NCBI GenBank assembly: GCA_029856435.1
Contig: JAHQXB010000095.1
Location: forward strand, 1-19,925
DNA length: 19,925 nt
Source: Candidatus Jordarchaeia archaeon
GTDB taxonomy: Archaea; Asgardarchaeota; Jordiarchaeia; Jordiarchaeales; Jordiarchaeaceae
Direction: 5' to 3'
This document shows, one piece after another, positions 696 to 5,867 of this stretch. The position numbers and the translations under genes are program-made. Every line of letters begins with the position of its first letter. Within the stretch, counting starts at the first letter, position 1. Below the pieces are notes generated by a model. It was given only the letters and a program-made list of their open reading frames with translations. It had not been told where the DNA came from and did not search any database.

Positions 696-1763
696 TTATG
701 GGAGAATTGCTTTTGCTTGCATTATTGCTGCTATGAAGTCTGTGGGGTTTACTCCAGGTGTAACTACATTTTGTTTATAGAATTGTTCAACTATTTGCTT
801 TATGGTTTGATAGTTGTATGGCGCGTCTTTAAGCATTTTTTCAAGTTGTTTTAGGGCTTGTGGGGGGTTTATGAAGAAGTCCCCGCTTATGTTTATTTCC
901 TTTATGTTGTTGTTGGATATGTTTAGGGAAACGCGTATTAGTCCTCCGGGTGCCTTGTATGCGGTTTCGTGTTCAAACTCGAGGCTGCTTCCAAAAATCC
1001 ATTCTGGGGAGCTGTACTTTTTTTGGAGTTCCCGGGCCATTTCTAGTTCTTCCGGTGTGAGCTTAGAGTCTTGGAACTCCACACCGAGAGCTTCTTGGTA
1101 TCCTTTGCGCAACGCGTTTTTCACAATACTCACGGGGATTGTTGTCCCCAGCTCCCTTCTTATTGTTGTCACTCTATCTCTGACTGAGGAGGCATTCTTG
1201 TCCCTGAGTTTTTCGGTGGGCACTGTCAGAGCATTTTCCAAATTTTCAAAGTTAAGATCCATAAGGAGGGTTCCGTGATGGATGAGAACATTGTAGAGTT
1301 GGTGCTGGGCGTTTCCAGAAATTTTTCTCTTACCTATAACAATATCATTTACGGGTTTAAACTCTGCCTCCAGTCCCAATAGTTTAAGGGCGATGATTAA
1401 ACCCCTACAGAGATACGAGTATGACTCTACGGGGTCTTTGAAGGATCTAAACTTGTTAGTGTCTATGTAGAGTGAGTAGTTTAGGTTTCCCGAATCCTGG
1501 TATACCGCCCCGCCTCCTGATAGTCTCCTCACTATTTTTATTCCTTTCTGTTTACAGTAATCTATGTTCACTTCTTTCTCCACCCGCTGGTTGCACCCTA
1601 CGCTTACAATTAGGGGGTGTTGCCACACTCGGAGAGCGTTTGGAGAATTTTTTTCCAGTATGCTTCTGGCCATGGTTTCCTCTATTGCTAAGTTCATGTA
1701 GGGGTCATCTGAACTATAGTCGATGAAGCGCCAGGACTCCTTCAAAGTCACCCCGCCCCCCAT
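696..1763 (-). CDS. lplA: Lipoate-protein ligase A with fused C-terminal LplB-type domain
   Basis: Motifs DPYMNLAIEE, RRLSGGGAVYQDSGNLNYS, NDIVIGKRKISGNAQ (catalytic Lys) and HGTLL are present. The C-terminal KAPGGLIRV...ISGDFF is the small accessory domain. Confidence 0.95.
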   Translation of the reverse strand: MGGGVTLKESWRFIDYSSDDPYMNLAIEETMARSILEKNSPNALRVWQHPLIVSVGCNQRVEKEVNIDYCKQKGIKIVRRLSGGGAVYQDSGNLNYSLYIDTNKFRSFKDPVESYSYLCRGLIIALKLLGLEAEFKPVNDIVIGKRKISGNAQHQLYNVLIHHGTLLMDLNFENLENALTVPTEKLRDKNASSVRDRVTTIRRELGTTIPVSIVKNALRKGYQEALGVEFQDSKLTPEELEMARELQKKYSSPEWIFGSSLEFEHETAYKAPGGLIRVSLNISNNNIKEINISGDFFINPPQALKQLEKMLKDAPYNYQTIKQIVEQFYKQNVVTPGVNPTDFIAAIMQAKAILP

Positions 1764-2824
1764 TATTTTATCCTTTTAATCTCTTCCCTTATAACATCTG
1801 AAAGTTCTTCAGGGGTGGGAACATTTCTTCCATATTTTAGCTCGCCGTTTACTATTACTGCGGGAATCTGGGACTTTTTAGCAGCTTCTATTAACCCGTT
1901 TGTAACAGTAACGCCCGGAGGTAAACCTCTTCCCCTTCTCCATATCCTCAATTCAATTTCTTCTTCGTTCCCAGACATTTTTATTCCCTCTTTCACATTT
2001 TTTTCTATCTGGGAACACATTTTAGTGGGGGGAGAAGCAGTCAAAACCTCTATGAGAAGTTTACCATAAGCTAGAGGTGGAGAAAACTCTAGATTCCATT
2101 TTGGAGACTGATACTTAGTTTTCAAAACCCGTTCAAAAGTGTTTTTCTCTAAATCTGTTAAACTTCCCTCAACAAGGGCGGCCCCAAATTTTTCCCTTAT
2201 CCTATGCGAAGCCTCCCCAATAAATTCTTTAATTTTCTTTTCGCTTGATGAGAGCCGTTTTAAGCTGGATACCTTTTTGGGTAGGATACCCGCAGAGTTG
2301 GCAAAATCCACGTCAATATCTAGGTAAACGACGCCCTGAAAAACTAGTACGTCATAGTACCAAAACTGTGAAACCTGAGAAATTACCACATCATCTACGA
2401 ATAGGTAAGAAGTATTATCAAAGGCACATTTTAACCCAAAATTTTCTATTGTTTCAATTAGGGGAGAGTAAACCAGCCGGTACAAATCATTTAACTCCCT
2501 TGGAAAAAAGGGGTCACGCGTATCAAGAATAAAGCCAAAGAGCAGTGAGCCTTCATCAGCGTAGAATGTTGGTCCATCAGTAACCCTCCTAATAATACTG
2601 ACGTTTTTCCCTTCCAAGAAACCCATCTGGTCTCGGTTCAACCGCAGGTTTCCCAAAACTATGGAGGGAGGACTCCTCCAAAAATGTACTGAGTTGGGTG
2701 CATCTCCACCCTTAACGTGGAGCATAATGGTTTCATCTAAAGCCCACCCCCGGCTTGGCTCAACAATGTCCTGGATGAAAAGTCTTAGTTCCCTAATTTT
2801 GGTGGCCTCCCTTAAAGTACACAC
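1763..2824 (-). CDS. Degenerate LplA/LipB-fold paralogue fused to a C-terminal thioredoxin-like domain (real start may be ATT at 2797)
   Basis: Colinear with LplA (WALDETI, PPSIVLG, IIRRVTDGPTFYADEGSL, KYQSPKWNL) but lacks GGG, ND, the catalytic Lys and HGT. The last ~99 aa (LLIEVL...TKMC...IPAVIVNGELKYGRNVPTPEEL) match the MTH895/Thioredoxin_3 pattern. Confidence 0.8.
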   Translation of the reverse strand: MCTLREATKIRELRLFIQDIVEPSRGWALDETIMLHVKGGDAPNSVHFWRSPPSIVLGNLRLNRDQMGFLEGKNVSIIRRVTDGPTFYADEGSLLFGFILDTRDPFFPRELNDLYRLVYSPLIETIENFGLKCAFDNTSYLFVDDVVISQVSQFWYYDVLVFQGVVYLDIDVDFANSAGILPKKVSSLKRLSSSEKKIKEFIGEASHRIREKFGAALVEGSLTDLEKNTFERVLKTKYQSPKWNLEFSPPLAYGKLLIEVLTASPPTKMCSQIEKNVKEGIKMSGNEEEIELRIWRRGRGLPPGVTVTNGLIEAAKKSQIPAVIVNGELKYGRNVPTPEELSDVIREEIKRIK

Positions 2825-3494
2825 ATTTATCCTTTTTACATTCTACATTATTGGAAGAAAAAGGACACTCCTCGAAATTTGAGGGTAATTTGATTTTAAA
2901 TTTTTTTTCTAAAAGGCCTATGGCGCTTTTTATAGAAGCATAAACGCTGGCTTTGCAGCACCTTGGACCCCCTAGCCTTGAAATGGAGAGTAGCGATTCA
3001 CCACTAGCATCCAAACACTCTGACCTCTCAGTATCAGACCTGTAAGTTGCTCCCGTTAGAACACTCATAGCGATTCCAACACCTGCTCCAGCCCCACACA
3101 CACCCCAGGATCCACAAGTACCATAGGGTATCCTTTTCCCCCTCTTAATGGCAATCCTAACCGCTCTGGGTGGCAAATCATAACCTACATTTTTTATGGC
3201 GGTTAACAGCACAGCGGGAACAAGGTAGTGATGAATGGGTGAATGTATGGGTATTGCAGGATGCTTCATTATTAGGTTAGCTAGTTCGTACGGATTTTTT
3301 ATTTCACTCCTCTCACAGGTTTTTAAAACTAGTTCTTCGGGAAGAGCTAACCTACAGTTCTCGCACACAAAGTGATGGTCATCACAAGTATAATCAGCCA
3401 CTGAAACCTCCTTACAGTATATGCACTTCAGCTCCTCAGAAGTTGGGTGAAGAACCTTATTGCAAATATTGCAGTAGAAAACCTCGTTCTCCAA
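2793..3494 (-). CDS. Cys-rich DUF5714-like protein (C_GCAxxG_C_C-related) with N-terminal Cys/His metal-binding region
   Basis: N-terminal CxxC, CxxC, C-x-HHFVCxxC, followed by HSPIHHYLVP, GTCGSWGVCGAGAG, GGPRCCK and a C-terminal CPF...C...C. TTG start. Confidence 0.75.
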   Translation of the reverse strand: MENEVFYCNICNKVLHPTSEELKCIYCKEVSVADYTCDDHHFVCENCRLALPEELVLKTCERSEIKNPYELANLIMKHPAIPIHSPIHHYLVPAVLLTAIKNVGYDLPPRAVRIAIKRGKRIPYGTCGSWGVCGAGAGVGIAMSVLTGATYRSDTERSECLDASGESLLSISRLGGPRCCKASVYASIKSAIGLLEKKFKIKLPSNFEECPFSSNNVECKKDKCVYFKGGHQN

Positions 3495-3643: not shown

Positions 3644-3904
3644 CTATGCTTTTAGAGCATTTTCTATTGCTTTTTCTAGGCTTTCCGGGTTGAAAAATTC
3701 AGGGAACACTTCGCTGCCATTTACCACTAGTCCTTTACTGCCGATTTTGAATTTCCTAGCCTCGTCTGAGAATGAAGGTTTTACGTCAAATTCCACTTGG
3801 TCTCGGTATTTTGTCAGTACTGCAAATACGCGATCCATGAATGCTGAGAATTGGCAGGCGCATGAACCCATGGGGATAAAAATATCTACCTTAACTTTTG
3901 ACAT
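3644..3904 (-). CDS. Small thioredoxin-fold protein with CxC motif
   Basis: 86 aa with a GGAGG SD. Pattern: beta strand VKVDIF, CAC at the helix start, then LVVNG and a C-terminal helix (ESLEKAIENAL), typical of small Trx-like proteins. Confidence 0.7.
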   Translation of the reverse strand: MSKVKVDIFIPMGSCACQFSAFMDRVFAVLTKYRDQVEFDVKPSFSDEARKFKIGSKGLVVNGSEVFPEFFNPESLEKAIENALKA

Positions 3905-4120: not shown

Positions 4121-4483
4121 TTAGAAAATGATTACGGCTTCGCCATGTTTTAGAATTATTTTTACCAATTCGTCTTCTTCAATGGGAGTGATACCTTTTA
4201 TTATTCTTGTTTCAGGTATTTTTCTCTCCGCGAGAGATTTTTTGTGAACATACAACTCGGACTCTGGGAGAAGGGTATAGATCAAATCTTCCACACTAGG
4301 CATAGATATTTTTTCGGGGCTTTGATTTGAAATCGTAGCATATACTCCATCGCCCATAAATAGTAAAATGCATCTCAACCCACTGTTAAGGCAAGCGACA
4401 GCCACATATAGTCCACTAAAACAGTCTTCAAAGCCATAGGGCGCTTTCGTGATTATTAGCAGTACCGTGTTAATTTTAACCAC
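4121..4483 (-). CDS. dsrF: DsrF/TusC-family sulfur relay subunit (start possibly ATT at 4474)
   Basis: LLIITKAPYG, LLFMGDGVY, LYVHKKSLAER and a terminal VIIF. Adjacent to dsrE and dsrH homologues. Confidence 0.8.
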   Translation of the reverse strand: MVKINTVLLIITKAPYGFEDCFSGLYVAVACLNSGLRCILLFMGDGVYATISNQSPEKISMPSVEDLIYTLLPESELYVHKKSLAERKIPETRIIKGITPIEEDELVKIILKHGEAVIIF

Positions 4484-4488
4484 CTTCT

Positions 4489-4869
4489 CTAAAGGGCCAA
4501 CACCCTATCGCTGTTTTTGAGCCAGTGACCCAAGTCACGCAGATTAGCTATGTGAACCCCACTAACATATTGGCTGGTGGGATAAATTCCATCATTTTCC
4601 TCCCCCTCAACATAACCCCTAGCTCCCGCACACCGCGAGCAGGATTTTATTTTCGCTCCCTTCTGAGCTAGTTCACTGAGTTTTTCACCAACATTAGGAA
4701 AATATTTTGGGCTTTGCCCCTTCTTAGCAGAGTGAACCGACTCCATATAAAGAAAAATGTTAACATTGTAACCCTTTTCTAGAGCCTTCGCAGCTATTAA
4801 GAGACCAATATCCACTCTTTGAGAAGCATAAGGACCATGATATAGAACTAAGGTCAATGTCTTACTCAT
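4489..4869 (-). CDS. dsrE: DsrE/TusD-family sulfurtransferase subunit with CxxC
   Basis: GPYASQ, IFLYMESV, KSCSRCAGARG (persulfide-Cys position) and SDRVLAL. ATG at 4869 lies 6 nt after a GGTG SD. Confidence 0.9.
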   Translation of the reverse strand: MSKTLTLVLYHGPYASQRVDIGLLIAAKALEKGYNVNIFLYMESVHSAKKGQSPKYFPNVGEKLSELAQKGAKIKSCSRCAGARGYVEGEENDGIYPTSQYVSGVHIANLRDLGHWLKNSDRVLAL

Positions 4870-4878
4870 CACAATCAC

Positions 4879-5202
4879 CTAGAAGCATAGAATTCTATCC
4901 GCACTCTCCATAATATCAACTATCATCTTACCAATCAAATCATATTGACACCTCAACCTCTTTGAAAGTAAATCCTCCTGAACGCCCCGCGCCTCCAAAT
5001 CCTCCTTACTCGCAAAAACTTGAATACGCTCAGAATCAATAGTTTCCAGAGTCATTCCTCTCATCCCACAGTATACTCCATCACCAATCAAGTATACTGT
5101 AACATTAGCATCAGTTCTAATAATTTCATTTATTATGTCGAATGCTTTCGCTACCCGCTCCGAAAGTGGGGGATCAATTATGATAGAAACAACTTTCAAC
5201 AA
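4879..5202 (-). CDS. dsrH: DsrH/TusB-family sulfur relay subunit
   Basis: YLIGDGVY, FASKEDLEARGV and a terminal ADRILCF. TTG start chosen after the GGTGG SD; the ORF track starts at 5220. Confidence 0.8.
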   Translation of the reverse strand: MLKVVSIIIDPPLSERVAKAFDIINEIIRTDANVTVYLIGDGVYCGMRGMTLETIDSERIQVFASKEDLEARGVQEDLLSKRLRCQYDLIGKMIVDIMESADRILCF

Positions 5203-5357
5203 GACACTACCACCACACACTTAACTGTTCAATTTCTTTTATCCTTATTCCAACAAATCTAAAAATATCTAAGCTAACTTGCTTTATGCTCCTCTTTTTC
5301 TGACTTTAAGGTCACCTATATTAGTAAACATTCAACTTTTAAGTTTGATATGTATGT

Positions 5358-5537: not shown

Positions 5538-5867
5538 TTGGAAGTTAGGAATCTAGTTATGAAAAAAAATGTTGAATTTTTAAAAGCCCTAGCAGATGAA
5601 ACAAGATTGAAAATTCTTCAGTTTTTAGGTGATAAGGAGATGTGCCAGTGTGACATTATACCTGCCATGGATAAATCGCAGTCCACGATTTCCCAGCACC
5701 TTCAAATTTTAACAAACGCGGGAGTCCTTGAGTATCGCAAAGAGGGTCAAAGAAGCCTTTACAAGTTGAAGGATGAAAGAATACGCAAAATAATCGAGTT
5801 AGTCAGCAGCATATCGAGTGATTCCCTTTTAGAAATATCTAAACTCGCAAAATCAATAGGAAGATAG
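5538..5867 (+). CDS. arsR: ArsR/SmtB-family transcriptional repressor with CxC (alpha3-type) metalloid site
   Basis: FLKALADETRLKIL, EMCQCDI (cf. ELCVCDL of As(III)-sensing ArsR), SQSTISQHLQILTNAGVL and RKEGQRSLYKL. Confidence 0.92.
   Translation: MEVRNLVMKKNVEFLKALADETRLKILQFLGDKEMCQCDIIPAMDKSQSTISQHLQILTNAGVLEYRKEGQRSLYKLKDERIRKIIELVSSISSDSLLEISKLAKSIGR

Follow-up and report, generated by a model that had tools for sequence, protein, structure and literature searches.

The gene at 1763..2824 on the minus strand of a 19,925-nucleotide stretch from a Candidatus Jordarchaeia archaeon (the window, by which we mean the whole of the DNA analysed) encodes a fusion protein in which a domain with the fold of the lipoate-protein ligase LplA, its catalytic motifs degraded, is followed by a thioredoxin-fold domain whose active site reads TxxC instead of CxxC. 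The family to which it belongs is rare and undescribed, conserved and selected; in the literature, we found no paper on such an LplA/thioredoxin fusion, on the DUF5714 protein encoded beside it, or on lipoyl carriers in arsenic islands. We favour, tentatively and while rating it somewhat short of probable, the view that the fusion protein is a lipoyl-handling subunit without ligase activity, the single cysteine of which would act on the dihydrolipoyl arm. This view builds on the fold of the protein, on its lost ligase motifs and invariant TxxC, on purifying selection and on the gene partnerships; from these we infer the binding of a lipoyl ligand, the role of the cysteine and its chemistry, and the link to arsenic.

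An open frame coupled to a ligase gene

1763..2824, minus strand: pseudo-LplA/thioredoxin fusion gene, 353 amino acids (open reading frame, Pfam LplA-B_cat match, homologues and selection)

The frame is open throughout, as the preliminary description, a reading of the sequence without database searches, had stated: its 353 codons, beginning with GTG, contain no stop. The start codon is uncertain, the GTG at 2824 being the furthest upstream possibility, and if that codon is used the gene overlaps the upstream DUF5714 gene by 32 nucleotides. At the other end, the TAA stop and the ATG of the downstream LplA gene have base 1763 in common (TAATG). The close coupling to LplA that the same description had proposed thus holds here and is found likewise in distant relatives.

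The LplA-fold domain has lost the ligase motifs

2087..2791, minus strand: N-terminal domain of LplA fold whose catalytic motifs are degraded, residues ~12-246 (Foldseek and motif alignments)
2555-2590, minus strand: degraded lipoate-binding loop RRVTDGPTFYAD (motif alignments)
2384-2386, minus strand: Val147 at the position of the catalytic lysine (motif alignments)
2324-2338, minus strand: QGVVY in place of the HGT motif (motif alignments)

Both sequence and structure comparisons assign the N-terminal domain to the LplA/LipB/BPL catalytic-domain fold. Pfam LplA-B_cat matches residues 23-202 of the fusion protein (E 1e-17), and in the AlphaFold model of the protein (predicted local distance difference test, pLDDT, 83) Foldseek matches the N-terminal domain to the Thermoplasma acidophilum LplA 2c8m (E 1.4e-17, template-modelling score 0.83 on the target). 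Positions common to the LplA family (WR, E, R, D and KY..W) are kept.

A functional LplA was defined by the lysine in the K-x-S-G strand (Escherichia coli K133), the loop RRxxGGGxxxxD, a match to the LplA equivalog model TIGR00545, and an LplB-type domain. The lysine is essential for both steps of the ligase reaction, and RRxxGGG forms the lipoate-binding loop (PMC7186572). When the fusion protein was aligned by BLASTP with the neighbouring LplA (E 1e-19, 24% identity), it read RRVTDGPTFYAD opposite RRLSGGGAVYQD in the loop, SYLF opposite NDIV, VISQVSQ opposite KISGNAQ, which places Val147 at the position of Lys147, and QGVVY opposite HGTLL. The losses of the loop, the NDIV segment, the catalytic lysine and the HGT motif listed in the preliminary description are therefore all reproduced. 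In a family profile alignment, the valine also falls under the catalytic lysine of K-V-S-G in the solved Listeria LplA1 (8cri). TIGR00545 gave the fusion protein 52.6 bits, under its cut-off of 280. The change from lysine to valine and the loss of the GGG loop and HGT motif are found in all Jordarchaeia and Thorarchaeota members; orthologues do not retain the catalytic lysine, since none of the Jordarchaeia or Thorarchaeota type has lysine there. As three defining features are missing, the fusion protein falls outside the functional LplA enzymes, and we conclude from its sequence that the known ligase mechanism is not open to it.

Could the domain instead be an enzyme of another kind? The LplA-fold relatives LipB, LipM and LipL catalyse different acyl transfers, and a new chemistry on lipoyl-lysine (that of an amidotransferase, a lipoamidase or a thiol-modifying enzyme) might be served by residues other than the lost lysine. 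The strong purifying selection on the N-terminal domain agrees with this proposal, as do the family-specific motifs SQ..QFWYYD.L.FQG in Jordarchaeia and YYFDYL..QG in Thorarchaeota. However, LipB, LipM and LipL are all known to keep the conserved lysine that is lost here, and in the wider family the N-terminal domain has no invariant polar residue beyond those common to LplA, so that we regard a new enzyme as highly improbable. The fusion protein does not have the Cys/Lys dyad of LipB, LipM and LipL, the lysine being absent, and the NCBIfam models for LipL and octanoyltransferase do not match it.

A thioredoxin fold with a single conserved cysteine

1766..2077, minus strand: C-terminal thioredoxin-fold domain, residues 250-353, 104 amino acids (model, VIA-align and Foldseek)
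2024-2026, minus strand: Thr267 of the TxxC site
2015-2017, minus strand: Cys270 of the TxxC site
1862-1864, minus strand: Pro321, invariant, at the usual cis-Pro position (family alignments)

Folded alone, the C-terminal domain forms beta-alpha-beta-alpha-beta-beta-alpha with a pLDDT of 88.8. All of the 50 best VIA-align matches are thioredoxin-fold chains, aligned over the whole domain with Z scores of 7.4-9.7, and Foldseek returned thioredoxins and ArsD at E ~1e-3. Likeness at the sequence level is weaker: the domain scores 21 bits against Pfam Thioredoxin_3, under the cut-off of 24.8, 6 of 11 members matching below threshold; its match to MTH895 (1nho) has an E value of 0.0065; and a protein-atlas search gave weak leads only (0.83, small thioredoxin-like families). 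The preliminary description had placed a thioredoxin fold here in place of an LplB domain, and the model, VIA-align and hhalign bear this out. An LplB-type identity was considered and rejected, because Pfam Lip_prot_lig_C does not match the domain and hhalign against the LplB domain of the neighbouring ligase gave a probability of 0.2%; an apparent LplB likeness in a MAFFT alignment is unsupported by hhalign. As to the limits given earlier, the codon of Cys270 was correctly located, whereas the domain begins near 2077 and not at 2062.

T267-K-M-C270 lies at the start of helix 1, the normal place of CxxC. At the same position a distant family member, P0064, reads PPCPGC, from which it appears that the first cysteine became threonine and the second was retained, in line with the earlier claim that only the second cysteine of CxxC is kept. 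With TxxC in place of CxxC there is no redox pair in the domain and the usual intramolecular disulfide is impossible; this, together with the score under the Pfam cut-off, sets it apart from standard thioredoxins. The invariant Pro321 stands directly before model strand 322-325, and its cis form is presumed from this position. With the small archaeal thioredoxins (Thioredoxin_3; MTH895, 1nho) the domain has in common the minimal fold, a weak sequence likeness and the proline at the cis-Pro position, but it differs from them in its TxxC, in its attachment to an LplA fold and in falling under the Pfam cut-off. The active site of peroxiredoxins is PxxxTxxC, so that there too a threonine stands three residues before a single reactive cysteine, in the first helix turn of a thioredoxin-type fold; in contrast to peroxiredoxins, the fusion protein has Ala263 rather than proline at -7 and lacks the additional secondary structure elements of that family.

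Purifying selection and the extent of the family

Twelve full-length homologues with 44-93% identity, all labelled Asgard, were found, and homologues in Thorarchaeota (24-27% identity) have the same architecture. The frame is uninterrupted in 13 members of the Jordarchaeia type, in 5 from Thorarchaeota and in 74 from metagenomes. In two genomes the gene is broken (L027:7859-8960 in G025 and L011:150-743 in G004), the adjoining LplA and DUF5714 genes being open.

Ratios of non-synonymous to synonymous substitution (dN/dS), calculated pairwise against three genomes of the same genus, were 0.11-0.16 for the fusion gene, 0.11-0.17 for its N-terminal and 0.08-0.10 for its C-terminal domain, as compared with 0.09-0.17 for LplA and 0.09-0.16 for DUF5714. 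Since the fusion gene lies in the same range as both neighbours, relaxed selection is excluded; the gene is under purifying selection and is not decaying, as the preliminary description had held. That all ligase motifs are lost, and that broken copies exist, could be taken to mean that the gene is a functionless lplA duplicate in decay. Against this stand the dN/dS values, the open frames in all three groups of members, the invariant TxxC motif, and a gene order kept across lineages with only 24% identity. These selection and conservation data refute decay, which we find scarcely credible.

A profile of the C-terminal domain, searched against 1.84 billion representatives, recovered 57 clusters only, ~20 of which are LplA-like fusions of 330-380 amino acids, the others being stand-alone proteins of ~100 amino acids. 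The metagenome scan recovered 79 loci, from which 74 proteins were extracted. At the TxxC site, threonine is present in 74/74 and cysteine in 73/74. The column of the catalytic lysine, by contrast with this site, is variable: among 72 members it holds R in 22, E in 19, T in 14, K in 12, M in 3 and I in 2, with gaps in two further members. In every metagenomic member both the glycine loop and the HGT motif are degraded; P0062 keeps every LplA motif (RRISGGGAVYQD, KISG and HGS) alongside the TxxC domain and may, from its sequence, be an active ancestral form. In another protein, P0047, the same thioredoxin-like domain is joined to an N-terminus resembling low-molecular-weight (LMW) phosphatase/ArsC (CGGNSARS).

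In a maximum-likelihood tree, 17 pseudo-domains and 18 true ligases are separated by one branch (support 100/99), and the subclades of the two are partly parallel; the tree holds the Asgard members and 13 loci chosen by hand from the 74 metagenomic ones, has no known root, and long branches may contribute to its shape.

A three-gene unit with DUF5714 and LplA

696..1763, minus strand: intact lipoate-protein ligase Lpl(AB), which itself ends in an LplB-type domain (TIGR00545 and Pfam)
2793..3494, minus strand: DUF5714 cysteine-rich protein (PF18978, E 1.4e-54)

The neighbouring ligase scores 283.4 bits against TIGR00545 (cut-off 280), 198.5 bits against LplA-B_cat and 53.2 bits against Lip_prot_lig_C. 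In 54 of 60 metagenomic loci the gene immediately downstream of the fusion gene is a ligase, and DUF5714 is the next gene upstream in 51 of the 57 loci whose flank is long enough and the next gene downstream in two others; the loci are inter-related, so they cannot be counted as independent events. The ligases found as partners are true ones (Pfam 162-181 bits). Most of those on the same strand are short (241-309 amino acids), with KxSGxA and RRxSGGG intact and no Lip_prot_lig_C match; the Thorarchaeota partner has 257 amino acids. Partners that bear LplB are those of the Jordarchaeia form and of a convergent metagenomic subgroup. In Thorarchaeota, overlaps of 1 or 4 nucleotides occur among the three genes. 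Of the genomes of the genus, four have both DUF5714 and the fusion gene and two (one of them closed) have neither; all six carry Acr3. The first interpretation, a non-catalytic scaffold that would bind lipoate or a lipoyl domain and deliver a thiol to the dithiolane, possibly as a heterodimer with LplA, is thus upheld in part, as to the conserved pseudo-ligase, the thioredoxin fold, the one retained cysteine and the coupling. It has to be amended in that the unit has three genes, with DUF5714 as constant a member as LplA, and it did not take in the lipoyl carrier, the CxC-type ArsR and the Acr3 of these clusters, nor the second paralogue beside Acr3. A complex prediction for LplA and the fusion protein gave a score of 0.00 and was uninformative either way.

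The DUF5714 protein has a zinc-ribbon-like N-terminus and the conserved motifs CG..G.CGA and RCCKAS. It aligns to positions 37-269 of the 468-position NCBIfam model 'metal-binding double selenoprotein MbdU' with 130.9 bits, far under the cut-off of 600. Sequence searches gave no solved relative, and a protein-atlas search returned nothing beyond DUF5714 itself.

The main rival to the reading that we favour is that the fusion protein assists the neighbouring LplA as an accessory subunit or sets its specificity, either replacing LplB or steering the ligase to DGC-GcvH (a GcvH protein fused to a DGC domain, described below), with the cysteine as a redox or metalloid switch. The T. acidophilum LplA catalytic domain alone needs LplB to adenylate lipoate; most same-strand partners, including that of Thorarchaeota, do not have LplB; the stop and start codons of the fusion gene and LplA overlap; and the thioredoxin domain occupies the place of LplB in fused ligases. 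Bipartite ligases are moreover described (PMC10332631). Nevertheless, the partner already has an LplB domain in the window, as it does in G025 and the convergent subgroup from metagenomes; in Thorarchaeota, separate LplB genes adjoin the other LplA; the thioredoxin domain has no similarity to LplB; and a second paralogue, on contig C56 of the source genome, has no adjoining LplA. We therefore consider such a subunit somewhat unlikely. Compared with LplA, including the bipartite T. acidophilum LplA/LplB (2c8m, 2art, 3r07), the fusion protein has the same N-terminal fold and a second domain that follows the catalytic one as in fused ligases, but its loop, lysine and HGT motif are lost and its second domain has a thioredoxin fold and not that of LplB.

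Arsenic genes and lipoyl carriers in the neighbourhood

3644..3904, minus strand: 86-amino-acid thioredoxin-like protein with C-x-C following strand 1 (unmatched in Pfam and NCBIfam)
4879-5220, 4489-4878 and 4121-4483, minus strand: three DsrE/DsrF/DsrH (TusBCD)-like small proteins (Pfam DsrE and DsrH)
5538..5867, plus strand, divergent: ArsR/SmtB metalloregulator with the motif M-C-Q-C-D (NF033788, 91.9 bits, cut-off 55)

A CxC box is present in every cluster-linked ArsR, as MCQCD, CCQCD, MCVCE or QCQCD, and corresponds to the As(III) site of R773 ArsR, ELCVCDL. In Thorarchaeota the genes run in the order iron-sulfur (FeS)-domain protein, Acr3, a protein of unknown function, Fer4, DGC-GcvH, DGC, DGC, CxC thioredoxin, ArsR, a second unknown, DUF5714, fusion gene and LplA. 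In the sister genome G047, Fer4, DGC-GcvH and several DGC genes lie ~4 kb past LplA, and on the same contig, 15 kb away, a second fusion paralogue (44% identity) stands in a cluster with two ArsR genes, an FeS-domain protein, a CxC thioredoxin and Acr3. Among metagenomic loci of at least 6 kb, ArsR or Acr3 was found in 20/43 and DGC-GcvH in 10/43.

DGC-GcvH is a single fused protein (L023:1174-2055 and L026:2319-3155), with a small ferredoxin and further DGC proteins encoded beside it, and the GcvH parts keep the lipoyl lysine (ESIK, ESTK). A literature search for 'DGC domain' returned diguanylate-cyclase papers only. Between LplA and the DGC block of G047 lies a MazE/PIN toxin-antitoxin pair (L023:4988-5700), which suggests that this island is patchwork or mobile. 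Elsewhere in the source genome there are a separate LplA (C137), a separate LplB (C29) and three ordinary GcvH genes, and no E2-type lipoyl domain was found in it; given these separate genes, the ligase pair of the window is an extra and specialised one.

The second paralogue of the source genome (contig C56, L021:4737-5774, minus strand) has 44% identity and the same TxxC. It stands between two ArsR genes and adjoins an Acr3 equivalog (429 bits), a 200-amino-acid FeS-domain protein and a CxC thioredoxin; neither DUF5714 nor LplA lies alongside, and a radical-SAM/SPASM gene and then a B12-radical-SAM gene follow.

The fusion protein might be an ArsD-like arsenite metallochaperone, its thioredoxin-fold domain binding As(III), perhaps together with the thiols of DUF5714 or the CxC thioredoxin, and handing it on toward Acr3; its LplA fold would be a mere scaffold or would hold free dihydrolipoate as a dithiol cofactor. 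ArsD (3mwh, 3kgk) ranks high in the Foldseek results for the C-terminal domain (E 1.3e-3), and it too has a thioredoxin fold, a reactive cysteine at the end of strand 1 and start of helix 1, and an arsenic-operon setting. The second paralogue is co-directional with ArsR and adjoins Acr3, P0047 fuses the thioredoxin-like domain to an ArsC/LMW-phosphatase-like N-terminus, and cysteine proteins are abundant across the neighbourhood. However, one cysteine is insufficient for the three-sulfur site preferred by As(III); the Cys12-Cys13-Cys18 triad of ArsD is absent, a single cysteine being conserved; there is no ArsA partner; and the structural match is weak and stands among ordinary thioredoxins. 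An ArsD-like role would also leave the near-obligate pairing with an active LplA unexplained, and we judge it improbable.

Homologues of the 86-amino-acid protein adjoin ArsR in the second Jordarchaeia cluster and in the Thorarchaeota clusters, all of them with CxC; as a relative of the C-terminal domain of the fusion protein it was rejected (hhalign probability 0.2%). The DsrE/F/H-like trio matches the NCBIfam TusB/C/D models under cut-off, and occupies, near the CxC thioredoxin and ArsR, the place that DGC proteins have in the Thorarchaeota clusters. A candidate ArsR operator, ATTTCAA-N6-TTGAAAT, gave 7 matches at 3 mismatches as against 3.9 expected, none of them convincing, and a comparison of intergenic inverted repeats between the window cluster and the second cluster yielded no common box. 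The contig ends 695 nucleotides past LplA.

Discussion

Lipoic acid is a classic cellular target of arsenite. In the reading that we favour, that of a lipoyl-handling subunit without ligase activity, the unit of DUF5714, fusion protein and active LplA would serve a dedicated GcvH-type lipoyl carrier in islands linked to ArsR and Acr3. The LplA-fold domain would dock the lipoyl-lysine arm or the lipoyl domain, and Cys270 would supply a third thiol beside the dihydrolipoyl pair; with it the protein could remove As(III) from the arm, load As(III), or exchange a disulfide or persulfide with the arm, while the neighbouring LplA would maintain lipoylation of the carrier. It could also be that the LplA-fold pseudo-enzyme holds the dihydrolipoyl arm or free dihydrolipoate, which with Cys270 would make up a three-sulfur As(III) site and so a cofactor-based metalloid chaperone or repair factor; we think this unlikely. 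The readings considered here, favoured and rival, are not all mutually exclusive.

Several observations weigh against the lipoyl-handling subunit. Two genomes of the genus bear Acr3 and have neither DUF5714 nor the fusion protein, which indicates that basic arsenite efflux does not require the unit. In roughly half of the longer metagenomic loci no ars gene lies within reach, and in the sister genome the copy of the window type is ~15 kb from Acr3 and does not adjoin it. A tblastn search of the source assembly found three ordinary GcvH proteins and no DGC domain, although the end of the contig may hide DGC genes. The residues still common with LplA (R14, E31, R79, D90 and KY..W) may be purely structural. 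Because 12 of the 72 metagenomic members retain the lysine and P0062 retains all ligase motifs, some members of the wider family might still be active as enzymes. Finally, the fusion gene is broken by one stop and one frameshift in G025 and by five stops in G004, which may reflect assembly error or real loss.

A dedicated GcvH-like carrier, an extra ligase and DsrE-type thiol carriers are likewise found in one cluster in the sHdr-LbpA system with sLpl(AB) (PMC10332631), and there too the carrier cluster stands apart from housekeeping lipoylation. In contrast to that system, the cluster described here has no Hdr-like or LipS1/LipS2 genes nearby, but instead ArsR with its CxC box and Acr3; the sHdr-LbpA system for its part has no described pseudo-ligase, DUF5714 or DGC domains.

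A conserved pseudo-enzyme family in the lipoate-ligase superfamily has not been described before. If the cysteine acts on the lipoyl arm, the fusion protein would provide a new link of lipoylation to metalloid or thiol stress and a first functional context for DUF5714 and the DGC proteins. A three-sulfur site, if it exists, would make it a new type of metalloid chaperone, feeding Acr3 or rescuing poisoned lipoyl proteins, and if the protein is a substitute for LplB it would represent a third lipoate-ligase architecture. The unit recurs among Asgard archaea and in many uncultured anaerobes, often in association with arsenic sensors and pumps; under arsenic stress these organisms may use dedicated machinery to handle lipoic acid.

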